Source: Nitrosopumilus sp.
Lineage (GTDB): Archaea; Thermoproteota; Nitrososphaeria; Nitrososphaerales; Nitrosopumilaceae
Reading direction: 5' to 3'
Assembly: GCA_965205425.1 (NCBI GenBank)
Contig: CBDBGZ010000007.1
Coordinates: forward strand, 32,001-96,000
Length of the DNA: 64,000 bases
Part shown: in pieces, positions 29,137-60,562 of the stretch
Layout: each line of letters begins with the position of its first letter
Numbering within the stretch: position 1 is the stretch's first letter
Program-made: the position numbers and the translations under genes
The notes under the pieces: model-generated
What the model saw: only the letters and a program-made list of their open reading frames with translations
Told to the model about the DNA's origin: nothing
Databases searched by the model: none

Positions 29137-29221
29137 GCGGGAGTCACCCAGCCTGGTCAACGGTGTAAGGTTCAGATCCTTATCTTCTAGGAGTTCGTGG
29201 GTTCAAATCCCACCTCCCGCA
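29137..29221 (+). tRNA. tRNA-Leu(CAG)
   Basis: GCGGGAG acceptor, TAAGG-TTCAGAT-CCTTA anticodon arm, long variable arm. Confidence 0.95.
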
Positions 29222-29261
29222 CTACAATCCATGTTGTTGTATCCCAAAATCAGTTCGTCCC

Positions 29262-30179
29262 TTATTTGACATCGTATTCTTCTCCTGTCTGCTCATCAAT
29301 AACTCTTGTTCCTTTCTCTGGCATCTTTCTTGCATATGCCTTTGCAGGAGTCTCAAGATTATCCCAGTCAAGTGACATGTGTGGCTTTATGTGATTGTAC
29401 CAGTGGACCAGCTCATCAATGGTGCCAAACCATTTCTGCTTTCTCTGAATCTCGCCGTGAAATCTTTCGAGCTTGCCATTGGTTTGAGGATGGTTCACTC
29501 TTGCCATGATATGCTTTATCTCTAATTTTACCAGTTCCTGCTCAAACTGGGATGCTCCTTTTCTCTTGTATTCTGATTGGTTTGCATAAAACTGGGAGCC
29601 ATGATCAGTTAGAATTGATGCAGGCCTACCGTGCTTTGCAATTGCCTCATGTAATACCACAAGTGCGTTATCTGTTGTTGCCTCTGCAAACACTCCATGA
29701 GAAACGATAAACCTTGATGCGTCATCCTGGTAGCATAAGAACCATCTGCCATCATCTAGCTTCTTCCAGTCAGTATGCCACATGGAGTTTGAATATGTCC
29801 TTTCATATCGAACCCACTTTCGTCTTCTCCTCTTCTTTGGCTGAGCTTCTGCCAACCCTTCATCTCTCATAATTTTATGTATGGTATTGTGAGGTATGTG
29901 TGTTCCAGTAGTATCAATTATTTTCTCCAAGAATACTGCAGAACACCTGAACTTTTCAAATGTAGACTGGACAGTCTGCACCATCTGCTCTGTGATTATT
30001 CCCTTTGGCCTTCCAGACTTGCCTAGGATTGGAACTGCACCAGTACGGCGATACCGTGAGTAGAGTTTCTGCATCCACCCAACAGATATCTTCATGGATG
30101 AGGCAACGTCTGCGTTCTTGGCACCGTCCTCTTTTGACTTGATTATCCAGGATATCTGGATTGGATCTAACTTTTGCAT
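29262..30179 (-). CDS. IS481-family transposase (HTH plus rve integrase core)
   Basis: WHTD...DDASR...TDHGSQF...PQTNGKLERF; true start MQKLDP from comparison with copy 2. Confidence 0.88.
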   Translation of the reverse strand: MQKLDPIQISWIIKSKEDGAKNADVASSMKISVGWMQKLYSRYRRTGAVPILGKSGRPKGIITEQMVQTVQSTFEKFRCSAVFLEKIIDTTGTHIPHNTIHKIMRDEGLAEAQPKKRRRRKWVRYERTYSNSMWHTDWKKLDDGRWFLCYQDDASRFIVSHGVFAEATTDNALVVLHEAIAKHGRPASILTDHGSQFYANQSEYKRKGASQFEQELVKLEIKHIMARVNHPQTNGKLERFHGEIQRKQKWFGTIDELVHWYNHIKPHMSLDWDNLETPAKAYARKMPEKGTRVIDEQTGEEYDVK

Positions 30180-30181
30180 AA

Positions 30182-31192
30182 TGCTGTGTTTCCCAACATG
30201 ACTAGTTGATCCAATTAATTTCATCACCCAAGCTTTAGATCAGAATATTCTGTATTATTCCATGAACAGAAACTGGAAAAATTACAACAAAACACTAGTT
30301 AGACGTGGAGAAATCATGTTGTCCTTTGACGCAATGGAATCATGGAGTATGGAACTAAAAGAGATGAATCACAAAAAGGAAGGTCATCGATTTGTCTATC
30401 CTGAATCCTTCATGGAGGCACTAGGATACTGTCATCTCTATTTGCATCTTCCATTCAGACAAACAGAAGGTCTGATAAAATCACACCTCCAATCCAAAAC
30501 AAAGACTCCCACATATTCTGCCATTTGGAAACGTGTCAACAAACTTGACATCAAGATGAATCCAAAACTAGGAAAAGACATTGTCATTGCAATAGACTCA
30601 ACTGGAATCAAGGTTGCAAACAGAGGTGAGTGGATGAGACAGAAATGGCAGAAGAGAAGAGGATTTCTTAAAATTCATGTGGCAGTAGATGTGAAATCTA
30701 AACAGATCACAGGGATTGATATTACAGATGACAAGTCACATGATTCAAAACATTTCATATCGCTAGTTGAGCAATCAAAACAGTTTGGCAATGTCACTAA
30801 AACTTTGGCTGATGGTGCATATGATACAAAGGATAATTTTTCATATCTGTATTATGATAATGATATTCTACCTGCAATTAAAACAAGAAAAAACTCATCA
30901 GTTGTAACTGATTGTTATCCTCGGAGAAAGTCCGTTTTGGCACAATTGTATAACTTGGATCTATGGAAGCTCAGCGTAAGCTATGGGGATAGATGGATTG
31001 TAGAGGGAGTATTCTCTGTATTCAAAAGAATATTTGGAGAGCATGTGACATCGCACAAGAGAGAAAACATGATTCATGAATTGAAAATGAAAGTTTGTCT
31101 GTACAATAAAATGATTGCAATGCAATAGAATCAGAAATGATTTCAAAGCATCAAAGAGTGTTGATGGTTATTTGGGGTTGGGAAACAAAGTA
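30182..31192 (+). mobile_element. IS5-family (IS903-like) element
   Basis: 16-bp IRs tgctgtgtttcccaac / gttgggaaacaaagta (14/16); 8-bp TSD ttgcataa at 30174-30181 and 31193-31200. Confidence 0.9.
30262..31128 (+). CDS. IS5-family DDE transposase
   Basis: NWKNYN..LVRRG, IDSTG, ADGAYD, Y..RW.VE. Confidence 0.92.
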   Translation: MNRNWKNYNKTLVRRGEIMLSFDAMESWSMELKEMNHKKEGHRFVYPESFMEALGYCHLYLHLPFRQTEGLIKSHLQSKTKTPTYSAIWKRVNKLDIKMNPKLGKDIVIAIDSTGIKVANRGEWMRQKWQKRRGFLKIHVAVDVKSKQITGIDITDDKSHDSKHFISLVEQSKQFGNVTKTLADGAYDTKDNFSYLYYDNDILPAIKTRKNSSVVTDCYPRRKSVLAQLYNLDLWKLSVSYGDRWIVEGVFSVFKRIFGEHVTSHKRENMIHELKMKVCLYNKMIAMQ

Positions 31193-32635
31193 TTGCATAA
31201 TCTTGTGATTCTTTCCTCTTTTCCAAACGTATCTTGACTTTAGTCTGGAAATAATGGGGTGAACTAATTTGAGGATAATAGACACTTTTTTTCCTTTTTC
31301 ACATGTTTTCTCTAATTATTGCACCCGGAATCTCTGTACTAGCTAACATATGGACTAAAAACACAAACAAGGCATTTCTCAGAAGTTCTCTTGCGATATT
31401 CGTATCTGCCGTGTTCGTTTCTGGCAGTATGCTTGGTCCTATTGGATTAACCTTTTCTCCCCAACATGCTTTTGCAGATGATATATTTGCAGAGATGAAT
31501 CCTTATGAAAATATTTTACCAAATAATGTATTACCTGATCATGAATTTTTGAAAAAGAAGCTGCATAGTTCTGGGGCAAACTCAGATGCTACTGATTCAA
31601 TGTATAATGATGAGAATCCCCTCAGCGAATCTGAGAAAAAGACAGTACATGAATTTCTTTTGGCGTTGTATGGGGACATCGATGTATTAAATGAACAGTC
31701 ATATCCTACTGTAGGGGGATACTGGACTGTAGAGTTTGTTACAAAGGGAACTCATGACTTGACAGTCTCTGCAATTAATGCAACAAGCTTTGGAGCTGGA
31801 TTGCCTGATGATGTAGAGTTTATCTCACTTTATGATTCTGATGGAAGTGAAATTGCACCTGAATTTATTTATGATGACTCTGGTTCTAATGCCTCTGTTG
31901 TATTTCCGGATTATTCAAGCGATGATGTTGGTTCATTTAAGATGCTTGTACACACTCCTGGCAAACACCATCTAAAATTTGAGTTTGGTAATGATGTTGT
32001 ATATGCAAACAACAATGCGTATCCAAGTTCTATCTTGGAAATTAACGACACTACTACAGACGGCCCAAACCTATCTGATGATGATCGCTTTGGCACCTCC
32101 ATTGCAAACATTGGTGACCTTAACGGTGACGGAGTATCCGATATCGCAGTGGTGCGTCTAGTGATGACAATAGAGGAGGTGATAGAGGCGCTGTACACAT
32201 TCTGTTTATGAACACTGATGGCTCTGTAGACCAAACCATAGAAATAAACAGCTCTACTCCAAATGGCCCAGATCTATCTAATGGCGATGAATTTGGCACC
32301 TCCATTGCAAACATTGGTGACCTTAACGGTGACGGAGTATCCGATATCGCAGTAGGTGCGTCTAGTGATGACAATAGAGGAGGTGATAGAGGCGCTGTAC
32401 ACATTCTGTTTATGAACACTGATGGCTCTATAGACCAAACTAGAGAAATCAACGACTCTACTGAACCTGGACCCCGCCTATCTGATAATGTTCTCTTTGG
32501 CTTCTCCATTGCAAACATTGGTGACCTTAACGGTGACGGAGTATCTGATATTGCAGTAGGTGCATTTGCTGATGGCCCTCTAAAAGGTACAGTACATATC
32601 ATTTATTTAGATAAAGATGTGATTGTAAATGCTGT

Positions 32636-33606
32636 GGCCTTGTAGAAACCATCTGATTTTAACCCAATTGTGATACATTTTAGCTAATTTAGATCCATTA
32701 GGATTGTATTTGCAGATTACAGTATGGTCTCATCATACGTCAAAATGTGCAAAACACTACTCAATATAATCACCAGATGCAGAATTCCCAGGTTCTTACA
32801 TCCAAAATCAAATCATATCTATTCTGTTTGGACACATCTCATACTCTTGGCAATACGACAGTACGAATCAAAGAGTTATAGAAGATTTACAGAATTTTTA
32901 GAAGAATGTGTAGGAATTCAGGAATATCTTGGTTTGTCTACCATTCCACATTACACCACACTACAAAAGGCAGCTGCAAGACTGGAAGGAAATCTGTTAC
33001 ATAAAATGTTGCAGGAATTCATTTTGTACAAAAAAGTCAGACTGGTTCTAGCTGGAATTGATGGTAGCGGATTCAGTTACAGTACAGCATCATACTATTA
33101 TACAAAAAGAGTACAGTTACGCAGGAATTTCCTAAAAGTTGTTGTTTGTGCTGACATGAATACACAGCTTGTTTGCTGTGTCATGACACACCACAACATG
33201 CAACATGATAATCCTGATTTTCTGCCATTGTTGTACAAAACCAACAATATTGTTCCAGTTGATATTGTGTTAGGTGACATGGGTTTTGATGATGAGAATA
33301 ACCATGTTGGTGCAGAACAGATCAACACAGCTGCAATAATTCCAACTCGATATGGAACAGTTCCAATTTACAGAACCAGTGGAATTCATAGAAAGGAGAT
33401 GAAGAGGAACTTTCCTGTACAATTGTACCATCAGAGAAACAAATCTGAAACAATCTTTTTTGTGATCAAACAGATAATGTCAGGAGATGTCACATCAAGA
33501 AATGTTACAACTCAGGACAATGAGATGTTGTACAGGTTAATTGCATACAATGCTTACAGGATTAGAAAATTAGATTTTGTTATTTTATCATGGTTTCTAC
33601 AAGGCC
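32636..33606 (+). mobile_element. IS5-family-like element inserted in the FG-GAP gene
   Basis: Perfect 17-bp IRs GGCCTTGTAGAAACCAT; 9-bp TSD aaatgctgt at 32627-32635 and 33607-33615. Confidence 0.93.
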
Positions 33607-33659
33607 AAATGCTGTATCATCTACTACTGCTAATGGTATATATGATACTGGTGATGTAG
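32724..33659 (+). CDS. DDE transposase (IS5/IS4-like); frame runs past the right IR
   Basis: GIDGSGF, GDMGFD, YHQRNKSE. Confidence 0.88.
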   Translation: MVSSYVKMCKTLLNIITRCRIPRFLHPKSNHIYSVWTHLILLAIRQYESKSYRRFTEFLEECVGIQEYLGLSTIPHYTTLQKAAARLEGNLLHKMLQEFILYKKVRLVLAGIDGSGFSYSTASYYYTKRVQLRRNFLKVVVCADMNTQLVCCVMTHHNMQHDNPDFLPLLYKTNNIVPVDIVLGDMGFDDENNHVGAEQINTAAIIPTRYGTVPIYRTSGIHRKEMKRNFPVQLYHQRNKSETIFFVIKQIMSGDVTSRNVTTQDNEMLYRLIAYNAYRIRKLDFVILSWFLQGQMLYHLLLLMVYMILVM

Positions 33660-34265
33660 TCGATGTCACTGTATTATTTTCCGAACCTGTTACTGTTACT
33701 GGAACTCCGCAAATCACACTAGAAACTGGCAGTATTGATCGAACAGTTAGCTATACATCTGGCAGTGGTACTGATACCTTAACATTTCAATATGTTGTAC
33801 AACCCGGTGACACATCATTAGATCTTAATTACGTTAATGTAAATTCTCTAATGTTAAATGGAGGTAGCATTAACGCCTTAAAATCTCCAAATAATGGTGC
33901 AATTTTAACATTGCCTTCTCTAGATTTTGTTTTGAAAGTTAGACCTGTAAATGCATTTGGTTCTTTAGGATTGACCAAAGATCTTATCATTGTAGACGCT
34001 CCGCCAATCTTTGACTCTGGTATAATACAAGAGGGAACAGGAGTACTCTCTGTAACATTCTCAGAGACAATAAATCCTGACAATGTTACAGTGGGCAGCT
34101 TTACAATATCTGATACTGCAGGTAACCACATGTCTGTATCACTTGTTGATACAACACACGCCATTGATCCTGACTCTGATGACACCCTTACAATAACTCT
34201 AACTGAGGCGCAGCGACAACAAATAATCTCTTACACCGGCAGTGATAACAATGATATCTTGCATT

Positions 34266-34710
34266 TAGACATTGCAGAAGATGCAGTAAGTGATGTTGCA
34301 GGAAACGGCATTGCAGCATCAGAGGACAATGCGATAACTACAACTGGAGATACTGCCGGCCCTGAATTTGGTTCTGCTACATTTGATGCCAACACCGGAG
34401 TCCTGGATATTACATTTAATGAGACCATAAGCAACACTGACTCTTCTTCTGTGGATCTCTCAAAGCTGTTCCTTAGTGCACCAGACACTGAGAATCAGGT
34501 GCCCCTTGCAGGTGCAACAGTTGGTACTATAGGCGACTCTGTCACACTATCTATCACCCTAACTGAAGAACAGAGAATCTCAACACTTGGCAACTCTCTT
34601 ACACCGCAGCTAGACATTGCAGAAGATGCAGTAAGTGATGTTGCAGGAAACGGCATTGCAGCATCAGAGGACAATGCGATAACTACAACTGGAGATACTG
34701 CCGGCCCTGA
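34266..34710 (+). repeat. Exact 100-bp direct repeat (34266-34365 and 34611-34710)
   Basis: Both copies encode LDIAEDAVSDVAGNGIAASEDNAITTTGDTAGP. Confidence 0.92.
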
Positions 34711-35610
34711 TGGCGATGCTCTCTCACCGACATCTACACAGACTGAAACATCTTCATCTAGTGGCAGCGGCAGAATTAACTTGGATGTATCTGAAGAGTC
34801 CCACGCTGAATTCTTACACAAAGATATCGACAAATCAAATTGTGACTCTAAGGGATTTGGAATGGGTATCTCGCTTCGAATATTCAGTATAGGATATGAC
34901 AGGGAAACTAGTACTGTCAATGTGGAACTACTCTCTACATGCGGACCTGCATCTGTCTCTGTCAACACTGATGCAGGTGTGCACCTTGCAGCATTATCTC
35001 TAACATCTGAGCAGTTGCCTCAGTCCTCTGCAAATTCAACAGAGAAACAGCACCTCATATACTCTGCCATAATTAATTCTGATGCAGACTCTTTTACAGT
35101 TATAGCAAAAGACAAACGAGACACATTTACTCAGACCATAACGCTAAGTGATGACTTTGTTGAAAAGAAATACCATCATCGTACAGGGTATACTAGCGAA
35201 CAGCTAAGTTCACTTGAGAATCTAAATGCAATAGAGGATGATCCAAGACCTATAGCAGATAAGACCGTTCTAAAAAACACTGATCCTATACCTTTGTGGA
35301 TAAAGTCTGATCTGGAATTGTGGAATGGAAGTCCTGCCCGTGATATATTCTTCTTTAATTCCATTGACTATCTAATTGATAACCGCTATATCGTCTATGA
35401 AGACTGGGAAAAATCAAAAAGCCTGCGAAATCTGGATACATATCCCAAATGGCTGCTTAATGATGTAGGTAATTACCTTGATGGTAATCTCACTGATGCT
35501 GAATTCACTGAACTCATTGAGACCCTCATAGAAGAGCGTGTTGTTAGAATTGCAGATGATGACAATGATGATGGATAGATAATCTGAGATTTGGATATAA
35601 TGAATTACAA

Positions 35611-50822: not shown

Positions 50823-51042
50823 CTAATTGTTGATGAACAAGCCTGCAATTAATTCTAACTGTGATTGAATCGACTGGATTTTGTAGATTAACTCTGTTTT
50901 TTTGACATTTGAGACTTTGTATTGTTTGTGAGAATGAGATTAGATTCAGGTGATTGGGTATATGCTGCCCCTAGATTATTATGGAATAATTTTCAATAAT
51001 TCTAGATGGACTTTGTATCCTTTGCAAAAACAATTCACATGG

Positions 51043-52081
51043 ATAATTCTTGTTCCTTTCTCTGACATCTTTCTTGCATATGCCTTTACAGGGGTCTCAA
51101 GATTATCCCAGTCAAGTGACATGTGTGGCTTTATGTGATTGTACCAGTGGACCAGCTCATCAATGGTGCCAAACCATTTCTGCTTTCTCTGAATCTCGCC
51201 GTGAAATCTTTCTAACTTTCCATTTGTCTGTGGATGATTCACTCTTGCCATGATATGTTTTATTCCAAGTCTAACCAGTTCTTGCTCAAACTGTGATGCT
51301 CCTTTTCTCTTGTATTCTGATTGGTTTGCATAAAACTGGGAGCCATGATCAGTTAGAATTGATGCAGGCCTACCGTGCTTTGCAATTGCCTCATGTAATA
51401 CCACAAGTGCGTTATCTGTTGTTGCCTCTGCAAACACTCCATGAGAAACGATAAACCTTGATGCGTCATCCTGGTAGCATAAGAACCATCTGCCATCATC
51501 TAGCTTCTTCCAGTCAGTATGCCACATGGAGTTTGAATATGTCCTCTCGTATCTAACCCACTTTCGTCTTCTCCTCTTCTTTGGCTGAGCTTCTGCCAAC
51601 CCTTCATCTCTCATAATTTTATGTATGGTATTGTGAGGTATGTGTGAGAACACCTCGTGGATTTATTTTTCAAACAAGAACTCATAATTTTATGTATGGT
51701 ATTGTGAGGTATGTGTGTTCCAGTAGTATCAATTATTTTCTCCAAGAATACTGCAGAACACCTGAACTTTTCAAATGTAGACTGGACAGTCTGCACCATC
51801 TGCTCTGTGATTATTCCCTTTGGCCTTCCAGGCTTGCCTAGAATCGGAACTGCACCAGTACGGCGATACCGTGAGTAGAGTTTCTGCACCCACCGAACAG
51901 ATATCTTCATGGATGAGGCTACGTCTGCGTTCTTGGCACCAATCCTCTTTTGACTTGATTATCCAGGATATCTGGATTGGATCTAACTTTTGCATAATCT
52001 TGTGATTCTTTCCTCTTTTCCAAACGTATCTTGACTTTAGTCTGGAAATAATGGGGTGAACTAATTTGAGGATAATAGACA
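51043..52081 (-). mobile_element. IS481-family element, copy 2, decayed (3' truncation, 71-bp insertion, +1 frameshift near 51941)
   Basis: Near-identical to 29299-30181 plus 31193-31284; transposase split over three ORFs. Confidence 0.9.
51610..51717. repeat. Exact 37-bp direct repeat flanking a 34-bp insert (repeat-spacer-repeat)
   Basis: ctcataattttatgtatggtattgtgaggtatgtgtg at 51610-51646 and 51681-51717; single copy at 29866-29902 in IS copy 1. Confidence 0.95.
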
Positions 52082-53221: not shown

Positions 53222-56200
53222 TTGTTGAATAGATTCAATCTTTCATTATTGTCTGTAATTTTGGTATTAGGTGTTGCATCTGTAGTTCCAATACAAGATG
53301 CATTTGCAGCTACTCCTGCACGTACTGTAGATACCGTATCTGATCCTTCAGATACTTTTAATATTGTATCTCTAACCGTTAGTGCACTTACCACAAGTGG
53401 TGCAGATGATATATTTGAAGAGATGAATCTTGATGAAAATGACCTTCTTTTCCCAAATGCTGTTTTATCTGATGATGATCATGAATTTTTGAAAAAGAAG
53501 CTACTGCATAGCTCTTGGGCAAACTCCAATACTATTGATTCACTGTACAATAATAATGATAATAATGAGAACCCTCTCAGTGAATCTGAGAAAAAGACAG
53601 TACATGAATTTCTTTTGGCGTTGCATGGGGATATCGATGTATTAAATGAACAGTCATATCCTACTGTAGGGGGATACTGGACTGTAGAGTTTGTTACAAA
53701 GGGAACTCATGACTTGATAGTCTCTGCAATTAATGCAACAAGCTTTGGAGCTGGATTGCCTGATGATGTAGAGTTTATCTCACTTTATGATTCTGATGGA
53801 AGTGAAATTGCACCTGAATTTATTTATGATGACTCTGGTTCTAATGCCTCTGTTGTATTTCCGGATTATTCAAACGATGATGTTGGCTCATTTAAGATGC
53901 TTGTACACACTCCTGGCAAACACCATCTAAAATTTGAGTTTGGTAATGATGTTGCATATGCAAACAACAATGCGTATCCGAATTCTACTATAGAAATAAA
54001 CGATTCTACTTTCAACGGCCCAGAACTCTCTAACTCTGATCAATTCGGTTCCTCCATTGTAAACATTGGTGACCTCAACGGTGACGGTACATCTGATATT
54101 GCAGTAGGTGCGCCAGGTGATGATGATGGAGGTGGTAGTAGTGGCGCCATACACATCTTGTTTATGAATGATGACGGCTCTGTAAGCCAAACCATAGAAA
54201 TAAACAGCTCTACTCAAAATGGCCCAGAACTATCTAATGGTGACTCCTTTGGCGCATCCATTACAAACATCGGTGACCTCAACGGCGATGGAGTACTAGA
54301 TATTGCAGTAGGTGCGCCAGGTGATGATGATGGAGGAACTAACAGAGGCGCTGTACACATCTTGTTTATGAATGATGACGGCTCTGTAACTAATACAATA
54401 GAAATAAACGATTCTACTCAAAATGGCCCAGAACTATCTAATGGTGACTCCTTTGGCGTATCCATTACAAACATCGGTGACCTCAACGGCGATGGAGTAC
54501 TAGATATCGCAGTAGGTGCAACATTCGATGATGATGGAGGAACTAACAGTGGCGCCATACACATCTTGTTTATGAATGATGACGGCTCTGTAACTAATAC
54601 AATAGAAATAAACGATTCTACTCAAAATGGCCCAGAGCTTGAAACTGCCGACCTCTTTGGTTCCTCCATTGCAAACATCGGTGACCTCAACGGCGATGGA
54701 GTACTAGATATTGCAGTAGGTGCGCAAAGTGATGATGATGGAGGAACTAACAGAGGCGCTGTACACATCTTGTTTATGAATGATGACGGCTCTGTAACTA
54801 ATACAATAGAAATAAACGATTCTACTCAAAATGGCCCAGAACTATCTAATGGTGACTTCTTTGGCTCCTCCATTGCAAACATTGGTGACCTCAACAATGA
54901 CGGTACACCTGATATTGCAGTAGATGCGCATGGTAATGATGATGGAGGAACTAACAGAGGCGCCATACACATCTTGTTTATGAATGATGACGGCTCTGTA
55001 AGCCAAACCATAGAAATAAACGACTCTACTGAACCTGGACCCCGCCTATCTGATAATGTTCTCTTTGGCTTCTCCATTGCAAACATTGGTGACCTCAACG
55101 GCGATGGAGTACTAGATATTGCAGTAGGTGCGCCAGATGATAGCACTGGAGGAACTAACAGAGGCGCCGTACACATCATTTATCTAAGTACTGCAGTTTC
55201 TCATAGTGGCACTATAGAACAAACCATAGAAATAAACGATTCTACTCCAAATGGCCCAGATCTATCTCAAAATGACATCTTTGGCGTATCCATTGTAAAC
55301 ATTGGTGACCTCAACGGTGACGGTACATCTGATATTGCAGTAGGTGCGCAAAGTGATGATGATGGAGGAACTAACAGAGGCGCCATACACATCTTGTTTA
55401 TGAATGATGACGGCTCTGTAACTAATACAATAGAAATAAACGATTCTACTCCAAATGGCCCAAGCCTAGATGATGGTGACAATTTTGGTTCCTCCATTAC
55501 AAACATTGGTGACCTCAACGGCGATGGAGTACTAGATATTGCAGTAGGTGCGCCAAATGATGACAACGGCGATACCTCCACTAATCCTGATTTTGGCGCC
55601 ATACACATCATGCTTATGAATGATGACGGCTCTGTAAGCCAAACCATAGAAATAAACGATTCTACTCAAAATGGCCCAGAGCTTGAAACTGCCGACCTCT
55701 TTGGCTCCTCCATTGTAAACATTGGTGACCTCAACGGCGATGGAGTACTAGATATTGCAGTAGGTGCAACAGGTGATGATGATGGAGGTGGTAGTAGTGG
55801 CGCCATACACATCATGCTTATGAATGATGACGGCTCTGTAAGCCAAACCATAGAAATAAACGATTCTACTCCAAATGGCCCAGAGCTTGAAACTGCCGAC
55901 CTCTTTGGCTCCTCCATTGTAAACATTGGTGACCTCAACGGCGATGGAGTACTAGATATTGCAGTAGGTGCAACAGGTGATGATGGTGGAGGAACTGACA
56001 GAGGCGCCATACACATCATGCTTATGAATGATGACGGCTCTGTAACTAATACAATAGAAATAAACGATTCTACTCCAAATGGCCCAAGCCTAGATGATGG
56101 TGACAATTTTGGTATCTCCATTGCAGGCATTGTTAATCTTGACAGTGACCGCGTATCACATATTGCAGTAGGTGCAAAATTTGGAGATGATGCGGGAAGA

Positions 56201-59200
56201 GGCAACATACACATCTTGTTTATGAATGATGACGGCTCTGTAAGCCAAACTAGAGAAATTAACAATTCAAACACTCCTAGCCTAGATATCACTGGCCCTA
56301 CCCTCTTTGGCCGCTCCATTGCACCCATTGGTGACCACAACGGCGATGGTACACCTGATATTGCAGTAGGTGAATCAAACCATTTCTCACCACACAATGG
56401 CGGCGTCATACACATTATTTATTTGGATAAAAGCGTGGTTGTAAATACGGTATCCTCCACTACTGCCGATGGCGAATATGATACTGGAGCTCTAGTCGAT
56501 ATTACCATAGTATTTTCTGAACCTGTCACTGTTACTGGAACTCCGCAAATCACACTAGAAACTGGTGATAATGACCGAACAGCTGACTATACATCTGGTA
56601 GCGGCACTGATACCTTGACATTCCAATATGCCGTACAGTCCGGTGACGTATCACCAGATCTTAATTATGTTGATGTAAATTCTCTAATGCTAAATGGTGG
56701 CACTATTACCTCAGTTGACTCTCAAAGTAACAGGGCAGTTTTAACGTTGCCTCCTCCAGATCTTGTTTTAAAAGTTACTCCTGAAAATGCATTTGGTTCT
56801 TTGGGAAATTTCAAGGATCTTGCCATTATCAGTGGCGCACCTCCAACCTTTGAATCAGCTACACTGCAAGAGGACATAGGTTTACTCTCTGTAACTTTCT
56901 CAAAGGAGCTAGACTCAGACTCCGATACTGTTGCATTGGATGGATTTACAATAACTGATGATTTGCCTGAAGGTATTGAGGTACGCCTGTCTGTATTCCT
57001 TGATGGTGCAACACATGCCATTGACCCTGGCTCTCCTAATACCATTGCAATAACTCTAACTGAGATGCAGCGACAGCAAGTAGTAGCTTATACCAGTACT
57101 AATACTGGTAGTAACTTGCATCTGGACATTGCAGCAGGTGCCATACAGGACACTTTAGAAAATGACATTGCAGCTTCTGAGGATAATCCCATTACAAGTA
57201 TAAGTGACGCTGTGGCACCAACCTTTGTCTCAGGTATGATACAAGAGGGCACAGGCGTCCTCTCTGTAACCTTCTCAGAGGCAATTGACCCTAGTAATAT
57301 CATGGTGGATAGCTTTACAATAACTGATACTATAACCAGCAACGCATTACCGCCAGTATCCCTTGCAGGTCTAGCGCCCGCCATTGATTCTGGCTCTCCT
57401 GACACCATTAAAATAACCCTGACTGAGGCACAGCGACAGCAAGTAATAGGCTACACCGGCACTAATGATGAATTGCATCTTGACATTGCAGCAGGTGCCG
57501 TACGAGACATTGCACAAAATAACATTGCATCCTCTGTGGATAACGAGATTACAATGGTTGATGATACAATTCAGCCAACCTTTGTCTCAGGTATGATACA
57601 AGAGGGCACAGGCGTCCTCTCTGTAACCTTCTCAGAGACAATTGACCCTAGTAATATCATGGTGGATAGCTTTACAATAACTGATACCATATCTAGCAAC
57701 GCATTACCACCAGTATCCCTTGCAGGTCTAGCGCCCGCCATTGATTCTGGCTCTCCTGACACCATTAAAATAACCCTGACTGAGGCACAGCGACAGCAAG
57801 TAATAGGCTACACCGGCACTAATGATGAATTGCATCTTGACATTGCAGCAGGTGCCGTACGAGACACTGCACAAAATGACATTGAAGCTTCTGAGGATAA
57901 TCCCATTACAAGTATAAGTGACGCTGTGGCACCAACCTTTGTCTCAGGTATGATACAAGAGGGCACAGGCGTCCTCTCTGTAACCTTCTCAGAGGCAATT
58001 GACCCTAGTAATATCATGGTGGATAGCTTTACAATAACTGATACCATATCTAGCAACGCATTACCACCAGTATCCCTTGCAGGTCTAGCGCCCGCCATTG
58101 ATTCTGGCTCTCCTGACACCATTAAAATAACCCTGACTGAGGCACAGCGACAGCAAGTAATAGGCTACACCGGCACTAATGATGAATTGCATCTTGACAT
58201 TGCAGCAGGTGCCGTACGAGACATTGCACAAAATAACATTGCATCCTCTGTGGATAACGAGATTACAATGGTTGATGATACAATTCAGCCAACCTTTGTC
58301 TCAGGTATGATACAAGAGGGCACAGGCGTCCTCTCTGTAACCTTCTCAGAGGCAATTGACCCTAGTAATATCATGGTGGATAGCTTTACAATAACTGATA
58401 CCATATCTAGCAACGCATTACCACCAGTATCCCTTGCAGGTCTAGCGCCCGCCATTGATTCTGGCTCTCCTGACACCATTAAAATAACCCTGACTGAGGC
58501 ACAGCGACAGCAAGTAATAGGCTACACCGGCACTAATGATGAATTGCATCTTGACATTGCAGCAGGTGCCGTACGAGACACTGCACAAAATGACATTGCA
58601 TCCTCTGTGGATAACGAGATTACAATGGTTGATGATACAATTCTGCCAACCTTTGACTCTGGTGTGATAGACGTGGGTACAGGCATCCTCTCTGTAACCT
58701 TCTCAGAGACAATTGACCCTAGTCATATCACAGTTGGCGGATTTACAATATCTGATATCATAGATAACAGCCTGTCCGTATCCCTTGCAGGTGCAACGCC
58801 CGCCGTTGACCCTGGTTCCCCTGATACCATTACAATAACTCTGACTGGGCAACAGTATGAAGAAATAATATCTTATATCCGTAATAGTAATAATGATGAA
58901 TTGCATCTTGACATTGCAGCAGGTGCCGTACGAGACACTGCACAAAATGACATTGAAGCTTCTGAAGATAACCCCATTACTCGTACTGGTACTCTTCCCA
59001 GAATACCCTCTGGCGGTGGTAGCAGCGGTGATAATACCCCTCCATCTGTTTATGTTGGATTTGATTCAGATGAATTCCCATTAAAGTATGACGGGGTAAA
59101 CTATCAATCCCACCAATTTGAAACCATTCATACTGCAATGATTGAAACTGGAGAAGAGTTTGAAACAACTTTGACACTTTATGACAATAGTGGTCCAAGA

Positions 59201-60562
59201 AACATACAACATGTTGAAATGTATGTAAATCAGTTTGGCCCACAAATACTAAATGATTTAACTGAAACTATTGTAATTTATGATGAACAGTCAGGATTAG
59301 AAATAATTGATCCATATGATTTGATAACAACTGCTAATGTAATCCCATCCATATCTGGAAACAAGGCCGTATATGAGATTATGATAGTCTTTGAAGATGA
59401 GATTCCTCAATCTGATATAATATTGCGAGTTTGGGATACTCAACGAAATCAAGCGAAATTCCATTTACATGATACACTAATTGTTGAACTATCTAATCGG
59501 CCAAGTGGTATCATTTCATCTGAATCTACATCCGGATCCTCTGAATCTACATCCGGATCCTCTGAATCTGCATCCCAATCATCTGGATCAACTACATCTG
59601 AATCTGCATCTGAATCTGCATCTGAATCTACATCTGAATCTGCATCTGAATCTGCATCCCAAACAACTACCTCTAGCACTGAATCTGTAATTGTAACTGA
59701 TAATTGGACTGATACACAACTATCTGTTCTAAAGAAGTGGGGTGGATTTGATACTGAAACTGCATCTGATGCTGATGTGCTGTCTGAATTTGGAGTAAAG
59801 GGTGTAAAAATCCCAGCATATGTATCTGATGTAACTAAATGGATCTTAAATGACGAAATTACTCCCAAAGAGTTTGTTAATCTGTTACAGTATCTAAAGA
59901 GTATGGGTATGTTATCTGACGTTGATCAGACTGGCTCTTTCCCTGTAAATACTCAAGATGATCTTGAAGAATTTGTTGCAGATTCCTCACTCATGGATGA
60001 ACGACTCAAGTTTGAGTTTGATGAATCTACACTTAACTCCAAAGCTGATCTTGGTGATTTAGAAGACAAACTTAGAATTCTAAGAGCACTTGGAAATAAT
60101 GAAATCATTCAGTCTGAACTTGAAAATTCTAATGCCGAGTTTGATGCATTAGATGATGCTGACTATGTAATTGACCAAAGAAACTCTGCATGGCTACGTA
60201 ACCCTTCTACTGTAACTCCATTTATGGAAAGTTTGATGACTAATGATTCTGCTTTAATTGCAAAGGCCATAATTGAAAATGATGTTGATTCTATCGTACC
60301 CATAACTTCTATTGTAATCACAAACGCATATGGCGTGAATATTGTAATCACTGAAAAAACTCATGATTACAAACAAAGTGATGAACAGTGGTGGGGTGAA
60401 ACAAAATCTGATGGTGCTTACATAATGTCTGGCTCTGGCAGTGAAGAATATGGTGGATTGTACACTTCTGAGGCCTCTACTGTCATTACTGATAGCCAAG
60501 GAGACTTTATTGGAATAATAAAAGCAACTGTTAACTTTGAAAAGGCTCTTCTTTCAAATTAA
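53222..60562 (+). CDS. 2446-aa secreted FG-GAP (integrin-alpha-like) repeat surface protein
   Basis: Signal peptide ending DAFA; 12 repeats with FG..I.NIGDLNGDG..DIAVGA; 119-aa repeats; Ser/Glu linker; Cache-like C-terminus. Confidence 0.9.
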   Translation: MLNRFNLSLLSVILVLGVASVVPIQDAFAATPARTVDTVSDPSDTFNIVSLTVSALTTSGADDIFEEMNLDENDLLFPNAVLSDDDHEFLKKKLLHSSWANSNTIDSLYNNNDNNENPLSESEKKTVHEFLLALHGDIDVLNEQSYPTVGGYWTVEFVTKGTHDLIVSAINATSFGAGLPDDVEFISLYDSDGSEIAPEFIYDDSGSNASVVFPDYSNDDVGSFKMLVHTPGKHHLKFEFGNDVAYANNNAYPNSTIEINDSTFNGPELSNSDQFGSSIVNIGDLNGDGTSDIAVGAPGDDDGGGSSGAIHILFMNDDGSVSQTIEINSSTQNGPELSNGDSFGASITNIGDLNGDGVLDIAVGAPGDDDGGTNRGAVHILFMNDDGSVTNTIEINDSTQNGPELSNGDSFGVSITNIGDLNGDGVLDIAVGATFDDDGGTNSGAIHILFMNDDGSVTNTIEINDSTQNGPELETADLFGSSIANIGDLNGDGVLDIAVGAQSDDDGGTNRGAVHILFMNDDGSVTNTIEINDSTQNGPELSNGDFFGSSIANIGDLNNDGTPDIAVDAHGNDDGGTNRGAIHILFMNDDGSVSQTIEINDSTEPGPRLSDNVLFGFSIANIGDLNGDGVLDIAVGAPDDSTGGTNRGAVHIIYLSTAVSHSGTIEQTIEINDSTPNGPDLSQNDIFGVSIVNIGDLNGDGTSDIAVGAQSDDDGGTNRGAIHILFMNDDGSVTNTIEINDSTPNGPSLDDGDNFGSSITNIGDLNGDGVLDIAVGAPNDDNGDTSTNPDFGAIHIMLMNDDGSVSQTIEINDSTQNGPELETADLFGSSIVNIGDLNGDGVLDIAVGATGDDDGGGSSGAIHIMLMNDDGSVSQTIEINDSTPNGPELETADLFGSSIVNIGDLNGDGVLDIAVGATGDDGGGTDRGAIHIMLMNDDGSVTNTIEINDSTPNGPSLDDGDNFGISIAGIVNLDSDRVSHIAVGAKFGDDAGRGNIHILFMNDDGSVSQTREINNSNTPSLDITGPTLFGRSIAPIGDHNGDGTPDIAVGESNHFSPHNGGVIHIIYLDKSVVVNTVSSTTADGEYDTGALVDITIVFSEPVTVTGTPQITLETGDNDRTADYTSGSGTDTLTFQYAVQSGDVSPDLNYVDVNSLMLNGGTITSVDSQSNRAVLTLPPPDLVLKVTPENAFGSLGNFKDLAIISGAPPTFESATLQEDIGLLSVTFSKELDSDSDTVALDGFTITDDLPEGIEVRLSVFLDGATHAIDPGSPNTIAITLTEMQRQQVVAYTSTNTGSNLHLDIAAGAIQDTLENDIAASEDNPITSISDAVAPTFVSGMIQEGTGVLSVTFSEAIDPSNIMVDSFTITDTITSNALPPVSLAGLAPAIDSGSPDTIKITLTEAQRQQVIGYTGTNDELHLDIAAGAVRDIAQNNIASSVDNEITMVDDTIQPTFVSGMIQEGTGVLSVTFSETIDPSNIMVDSFTITDTISSNALPPVSLAGLAPAIDSGSPDTIKITLTEAQRQQVIGYTGTNDELHLDIAAGAVRDTAQNDIEASEDNPITSISDAVAPTFVSGMIQEGTGVLSVTFSEAIDPSNIMVDSFTITDTISSNALPPVSLAGLAPAIDSGSPDTIKITLTEAQRQQVIGYTGTNDELHLDIAAGAVRDIAQNNIASSVDNEITMVDDTIQPTFVSGMIQEGTGVLSVTFSEAIDPSNIMVDSFTITDTISSNALPPVSLAGLAPAIDSGSPDTIKITLTEAQRQQVIGYTGTNDELHLDIAAGAVRDTAQNDIASSVDNEITMVDDTILPTFDSGVIDVGTGILSVTFSETIDPSHITVGGFTISDIIDNSLSVSLAGATPAVDPGSPDTITITLTGQQYEEIISYIRNSNNDELHLDIAAGAVRDTAQNDIEASEDNPITRTGTLPRIPSGGGSSGDNTPPSVYVGFDSDEFPLKYDGVNYQSHQFETIHTAMIETGEEFETTLTLYDNSGPRNIQHVEMYVNQFGPQILNDLTETIVIYDEQSGLEIIDPYDLITTANVIPSISGNKAVYEIMIVFEDEIPQSDIILRVWDTQRNQAKFHLHDTLIVELSNRPSGIISSESTSGSSESTSGSSESASQSSGSTTSESASESASESTSESASESASQTTTSSTESVIVTDNWTDTQLSVLKKWGGFDTETASDADVLSEFGVKGVKIPAYVSDVTKWILNDEITPKEFVNLLQYLKSMGMLSDVDQTGSFPVNTQDDLEEFVADSSLMDERLKFEFDESTLNSKADLGDLEDKLRILRALGNNEIIQSELENSNAEFDALDDADYVIDQRNSAWLRNPSTVTPFMESLMTNDSALIAKAIIENDVDSIVPITSIVITNAYGVNIVITEKTHDYKQSDEQWWGETKSDGAYIMSGSGSEEYGGLYTSEASTVITDSQGDFIGIIKATVNFEKALLSN
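53987..56425 (+). repeat. 12 FG-GAP repeats, mostly 204 bp (68 aa)
   Basis: atagaaataaac recurs at 53990, 54194, 54398, 54602, 54806, 55010 and onward. Confidence 0.92.
57218..58645 (+). repeat. Four near-identical 357-bp (119-aa) tandem units, plus diverged flanking units
   Basis: ccaacctttgtctcaggtatgata at 57218, 57575, 57932 and 58289. Confidence 0.95.
59519..59658 (+). repeat. 12/21-bp low-complexity repeats encoding an SESA/SESTSGS linker
   Basis: tctgaatct(g/a)ca arrays. Confidence 0.85.

Follow-up and report, generated by a model that had tools for sequence, protein, structure and literature searches.

How does a 37-bp piece of a transposase gene come to stand twice, without a difference, around 34 bp of unrelated DNA? 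The question is raised by an IS481-like element in a stretch of 64,000 nucleotides from a Nitrosopumilus genome, which was analysed at its full length and is hereafter called the window. The assembly of this archaeal genome (G000) comprises 2.2 Mb in 9 contigs and is 99.55% complete. An initial annotation, made from the letters of the window, proposed that a CRISPR spacer had been integrated off target. Nivala, Shipman and Church are said to have described, in Nature Microbiology in 2018, non-canonical spacer integration and neo-CRISPR loci in the type I-E system of E. coli.

Structure of the scar

The features of the locus, and the sites with which it is compared, are the following (window positions; the caret marks the border of the duplication).

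51610..51646, + strand: first copy of the duplicated 37-bp target, in IS481 coding sequence; the border that resembles a leader-repeat junction on the + strand falls at this copy
51647..51680, no strand: insert of 34 bp, unique in the genome (35 bp should the duplication really be 36)
51681..51717, + strand: second 37-bp target copy, identical to the first
51606..51612, + strand: scar border ATCT^CTC, like the junction between leader and repeat (RCT^G or ACT^C) in the congeners' 36/37-nt arrays
29866..29902, + strand: empty target site in IS481 copy 1
51755..51763, + strand: nine-base match to the start of the insert, the basis of the template-switching explanation
51043..52081, - strand: IS481-like element, copy 2; about 65 bp are absent at the end after the transposase gene
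51941..51942, - strand: one additional base, which shifts the frame near the transposase start; present in 4 of the 16 copies that cover the site
51611..51910, - strand: 99-aa frame that enters the scar and meets a stop in the duplicated copy
50979..51653, - strand: orphaned 224-aa frame with the integrase core, severed by the scar, with a foreign C-terminus
29262..30227, - strand: open 321-aa frame of IS481 copy 1, with an rve domain

The initial annotation described this structure correctly. The 37-mer pair is exact and encloses the 34-base insert, IS481 copy 1 has the 37-mer once, and the first nine bases of the insert recur at 51755. The insert itself occurs once in the 2.2-Mb genome: no other ungapped match there has fewer than 11 mismatches, and exact pieces of it found elsewhere are at most 14 bases long. 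The empty site is spanned by 16 other IS481 copies, which makes the scar an exact duplication of a pre-existing target; therefore, the duplication and the insert are the derived state. A hairpin in the scar unit is weak (-1.6 kcal/mol).

The target duplication of an IS481 element, or the integration of a casposon, resembles the scar in that an insertion lies between direct repeats of the target. However, the IS481 duplication is of about 15 bp and surrounds a whole element with its ends, whereas this scar and its sisters described below flank 32-34 bp without an IS end. The figure of about 15 bp, taken by eye from three copies, corrects the 2-9 bp that had been given for IS target duplications. 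Apparent duplications of this size are seen at C4:173861, C9:995494 and C9:109179 of G000.

The host element

IS481 copy 1 (window 29137-31284) directly follows a tRNA-Leu, and an intact IS5-family element at 30262-31128 splits it near its start, with the remaining end at 31188-31284. The best NCBIfam match of its protein is NF033577, the IS481 transposase (E 6.5e-56, 189.9 bits, cut-off 224); the rve domain scores over its cut-off, and the copies of the IS begin with TGT. The element (window 29235-30192) is 96% identical in G153 and 90% identical in G009, whose housekeeping DNA is 81% identical to that of G000, and on these identities it is likely shared with both by horizontal transfer. The window also holds a 2446-aa frame with repeat units of 204 bp and 357 bp (53222-60562), of which a broken partial paralogue lies 22 kb upstream (31303-35578).

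The IS481-like family has 18 long copies, which make up 0.8% of the genome. When these 18 copies are aligned, the only internal insertions longer than 3 bp are of 71, 70 and 70 bp, and all three have the form of the scar. The scarred copies lie at different loci, carry different scars and are 96-98% identical to one another, which is within the local range of the family.

In copy 2, the gain of 71 bases moves the reading frame, which ends after 99 aa, so that the transposase is frameshifted as the initial annotation had stated. Its suggestion that the scar may have inactivated this copy is weakened, as the N-terminal frameshift is common to unscarred sisters and one end of the element is lost. 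Because three copies without this scar have the additional base, and because of the lost end, the scar probably hit a copy that was already damaged. Gene conversion among the IS481 copies could blur the order of scar and damage.

Five scars of the same shape

In the first BLAST search, a second IS481 copy was split with an overlap, and genome-wide scans then gave five scars. Four further cases of a 36-38-bp duplication around such an insert thus accompany the one in the window (duplication plus insert, in bp).

Window 51610-51717: 37+34, the present scar, in IS481 copy 2
C9:109909: 37+33
C8:25035: 36+34
C4:117180: 37+32
C8:42829: 38+34, with one mismatch between the duplicated copies

The duplications measure 36-38 bp, the inserts, each unique, 32-34 bp, and the periods are 69, 70, 70, 71 and 72. 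Scars of this geometry are 5 of the 16 isolated duplication-plus-filler events with periods of 45-140 in the genome. The chance that five would fall in a four-base window of periods is P=0.023, with the narrow range of duplication lengths left out of the calculation. Events of 39+16, 21+17, 24+49, 33+43 and 39+12 were kept out of the five, being at IS ends or in protein repeats; all but 21+17, which is too short for the length limit of the scan, are counted among the 16. Duplication-plus-filler of other sizes occurs directly at IS ends at C4:98189 (39+16), C9:828925 (21+17) and C8:131572 (24+49) of G000.

Three of the scars are in the IS481 family, one is in a five-copy element (90-95% identity) and one is at the end of a decayed IS5-like element. 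Four are in multi-copy DNA and one in single-copy DNA. The three in the IS481 family exceed its share of the repeated DNA (P 0.006-0.05, given one). The five inserts have no IS ends and no shared sequence.

The joint of the sister scar on C9, with 32 inserted letters, is found in contigs of the public run X3, which may be the source sample. Run X6 has the empty allele only. In runs X3-X5, the unique left flank is present without differences, and the insert of the scar in the window is not among the pieces listed. This insert, unlike the joint of the C9 sister, rests on the assembly, and no spanning reads were seen.

CRISPR systems of the relatives

Of 151 genomes of the genus, 44 have Cas1 matches at E<=1e-30, a count that includes casposases. 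The arrays beside CRISPR Cas1 genes form three groups: 30-nt arrays, 36-nt arrays with a Cas4-Cas1 fusion, and 36/37-nt arrays of an I-B-like system, which in the congeners has cas4, cas2, cas1, cas6, a Csh2-like cas7, a Cas5b-like gene and cas3. The scar periods were fitted to 31 arrays of relatives, and the best four fits (log10 L -4.0 to -4.9) were to the short-period 36-nt I-B-like group. Fits were poorer to 37-nt arrays (-6.0 to -8.8), to the Cas4-Cas1-fusion group (-7.7 to -9.3) and to 30-nt arrays (-8.5 to -11.5). In four congener arrays, 82-95% of the periods are within 69-72; the system is found in relatives and is absent from this assembly. Duplications of 36-38 bp would be expected from a 36-base ruler with chance extension, or from a 37-base ruler with one changed end. 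The inserts of 32-34 bp are short for 37-nt arrays.

The congeners' I-B-like systems (L020, L047-L059) resemble the scars in the period of their 36-nt arrays (69-73) and in their leader junction, (G/A)CT^G or ACT^C. Unlike these arrays, the scar duplicates IS coding sequence rather than a repeat, and it has no leader and no cas genes. The I-B-like leader ends in (G/A)CT at 10 of 12 leader-repeat junctions. Scored with a matrix made from these junctions, the five scar borders reach p=0.00015 against nearby positions, and 0.001 when the scar in the window is left out; the test is post hoc, devised after the CT pattern had been seen in the scars, with a matrix from independent DNA. The matrix kept the junction of L050, which had been taken at a wrong position, and that of L047, which lacks CT. 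Two of the five borders score below zero, and that of the scar in the window is, by itself, in the top 6% of nearby positions. With a matrix from the 36-nt Cas4-Cas1-fusion group, the scar borders reach p=0.31. Nine scars of I-B-bearing relatives have border scores above all 20,000 random draws in the I-B-like matrix.

G or C stands at 9 of the 10 borders of the five scars (p=0.0012), compared with only 12 of 24 in the scars of relatives. The target bodies have 16-18 matches of 36-37 to the repeat (p=0.036 when compared with IS sites and 0.23 with genome sites). That they are not clearly repeat-like agrees with the 43% identity at the preferred off-target site of P. furiosus, as given in the accessible part of that report (PMC6698737). 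The border motif is on the + strand of the assembly in all five scars, and CT precedes the duplication on the + strand in 9 of 17 scars and on the other strand in 1 of 17. The strand of the motif could not be related to replication, as local GC skew is too weak for this.

Scars in congeners

Parts of congener genomes, some of them kin and not independent, were scanned for duplications of 33-40 and periods of 68-74. Congeners with 36-nt systems had eight scars in 920 kb (G163, 6 in 600 kb; G165, 2 in 120 kb; G149, 0 in 200 kb), six of the eight being from the single genome G163, where an empty site was established for one scar. Four further scars are in 784 kb of loci that neighbour cas genes. 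No scar of this shape was seen in 280 kb of two genomes with 30-nt systems; these 280 kb also held no 30-bp scar, a sample too small to judge. Seven genomes with no Cas1 match reaching E<=1e-30 gave no scar of this shape in 800 kb, where about 1.8 would be expected at the rate of the present genome. This control is weak; three of the seven genomes had IS-like DNA in the sample. On this small sample, the scans suggest that the scars accompany 36/37-nt systems in congeners.

Another of the G163 scars (36+35, position 311394 within L132) lies beside an IS481 relative. Its insert matches the neighbouring IS at 33 of 35 bases, 650 bases away, with unrelated flanks, no microhomology at the junction and CTC before the source. 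It is a candidate for a self-derived spacer, with the look that a cut-out fragment would have.

Three genomes of the genus (G021, G012 and G023; L029, L030 and L031) carry divergent Cas1 genes of about 340 aa beside a conserved gene of about 600 aa, with no array. These Cas1 genes are probably casposon-like, a label that is inferred. Of the relatives found, G012 is the closest (87%).

Search for Cas genes and arrays in the assembly

Neither cas1 and cas2 nor an array was found in the 9 contigs by profiles, tblastn or array search. The Cas1 and Cas2 profiles, which were positive in 7 and 6 of 14 control genomes, gave no match. With the relatives' Cas and casposase proteins, tblastn returned generic helicases and no casposase. 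The assembly has no CRISPR array, no credible orphan repeat and no match to cas6, cas7 or cas5; a reverse transcriptase and Ku were also not found. With nine contigs and completeness at its present value, loss of Cas1 and Cas2 is indistinguishable from an assembly gap.

A match of 29/37 to an I-B repeat at C9:834002 is inside an intact 391-aa gene and was set aside as chance. Three Cas4-like matches are stand-alone, and the two that were examined are in an island without cas1. This island (L022:3803-12149, C9 at about 798800-807150) encodes a 1249-aa DEAD/DEAH helicase whose best match, DpdJ, is below the cut-off, two Cas4-like nucleases, a CARF-like regulator and a protein of 454 aa that belongs to no family. 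A spacer of the 36-nt array of G014 (L019) matches C9:1057100-1057135 at 36 of 36 bases.

The term one-spacer proto-array, used in the initial annotation, was an overstatement. The scar has no leader, its duplicated body is not clearly repeat-like and effector genes are lacking; there are two copies only, with no further spacers, and the flanks are IS coding sequence. The unit is predicted to be inert, having neither leader nor effector.

Source of the insert

No source of the 34-mer was found in the genome or in viral sequences, hence there was no PAM to test. Viral contigs had no exact match to the full insert or to 24-28-base cores for any of the five inserts. The insert in the window was also without a match in metagenome contigs, in 150 congeners within 3 mismatches and among 2,275 spacers of relatives, and phage and plasmid records gave chance matches only. 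A second IS family, which has 17 of 19 bases across the junction, was considered as a source and rejected, as the match stops before the insert. Words of 9, 8, 7 and 6 bases are common to the insert and the 60 bases downstream of it (p 0.011-0.035 at 60-base flanks). Over twelve settings, the sharing of words with the flanks has p 0.01-0.27, and for the five inserts together p 0.06-0.69.

Origin of the scar

We consider it probable, from the geometry and the border, that the scar is a fossil of full-site off-target integration by the Cas1-Cas2(-Cas4) of an I-B-like system with 36- (or 37-) nt repeats, since lost or unassembled. That Cas1-Cas2 chemistry made it, wherever it acted, is very likely. 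Of the initial proposal, off-target CRISPR integration stands on the four sisters of the same geometry, on the period and leader-junction motif of the I-B-like system and on the scars of congeners; against it are the lack of cas1 and of an array in the assembly, and of reads seen across the insert. In such an event, a processed prespacer of about 34 bp would initially be attached at a border that resembles the leader-repeat junction (..CT^) and then, at the distance of one repeat length, to the opposite strand, and gap filling would copy the 36-37 bases between the two nicks. The lineage likely once carried an I-B-like system, which has since been lost or is outside the assembly. Frameshifts of 70 bp would survive only in dispensable DNA, which would explain why each of the five scars is in an IS copy or in another element that is repeated or decayed.

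The same chemistry may have acted elsewhere, with the scarred IS copies coming from a CRISPR-bearing donor, or with the integrase belonging to a visiting virus or plasmid. The assembly has no cas relic, the IS481 element moves between species, as its identity to the copy in G153 indicates, and a family of such small share holds three of the five scars. We nevertheless regard an outside origin as unlikely, since each scarred IS481 copy has its own locus and its own scar, two scars are in other elements, the system of G153 is a 30-nt one, and the loss of one locus is a simpler account than five imports. Capture of short DNA with a stagger of about 37 bp by another integrase, be it a casposase, the IS481 transposase or another enzyme, would agree with the lack of a CRISPR Cas1 in the assembly, with the clustering in one IS family and with the casposase-like Cas1 genes that are common in the genus. 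It is highly unlikely given that a casposase is missing from the assembly, that the duplication of the IS481 family itself is of about 15 bp, that the inserts have neither IS ends nor common sequence, and that the period and border motif fit one CRISPR group.

Template switching in repair or replication, in which a staggered break is filled with a patchwork of nearby sequence, would account for the words that the insert shares with its downstream flank. We think it very unlikely: the five inserts jointly show no excess of such words, the sizes are stereotyped rather than spread, the borders match a leader motif from outside, and Ku and reverse transcriptase were not found. An artefact of assembly or polishing in collapsed repeats, with an overlap of k-mer length and filler, is suggested by the multi-copy setting of four scars, by the fact that no reads were seen across this insert and by the motif being on the assembly + strand each time. 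It is extremely unlikely, as the exact insert of the C9 sister is in independently built contigs of X3 (possibly the source sample), one scar is in single-copy DNA, in one the duplicated copies differ by a mismatch, which age would explain, and an assembler would neither copy the leader motif of other species nor spare genomes without CRISPR.

Relation to known systems and significance

Off-target integration in E. coli requires artificial up-regulation, and the natural evidence, from two other species, is circumstantial, according to the accessible text of the preprint (bioRxiv 10.1101/148544). As far as that system is described there, its neo-CRISPR loci are like the scar in having a spacer-sized insert and a repeat-length duplication of a non-array target. 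Unlike them, the scar is natural, archaeal and of 36-37 bp, with several fixed events in the genome and no cas genes left. Cas1-Cas2 of P. furiosus performs full-site integration at non-CRISPR sites in vitro and, in the accessible part of the report, shares with the scars nicks paired one repeat length apart, G/C borders, enrichment of leader-proximal bases and low identity to the repeat (PMC6698737). That work used plasmids in vitro and concerns a ruler of 30 bp, whereas here the scars are fixed in the chromosome with a ruler of 36-37 bp. Host factors that suppress off-target integration are also known, as stated in the accessible portions of two papers (PMC13748974, PMC13769266).

No paper on fixed natural scars like these was found in a search that lay outside most subscription journals. 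The mechanism is already known; its occurrence as a natural fossil, linked to a single subtype and in a genome that lacks cas1, is new. A broader reading is that the I-B-like Cas1-Cas2 is a routine chromosomal mutagen in IS-rich archaea, which would prefer IS elements and disable transposases without interference, with scars that name the repeat length and leader motif of lost systems; we hold this to be doubtful. The scars would add a class of 70-bp frameshifts to the decay of IS elements, and they would allow a lost CRISPR system to be detected. Being fixed and countable, with a ruler length and a border motif, they would make the natural error rate and the site preference of archaeal Cas1-Cas2 testable from genomes.
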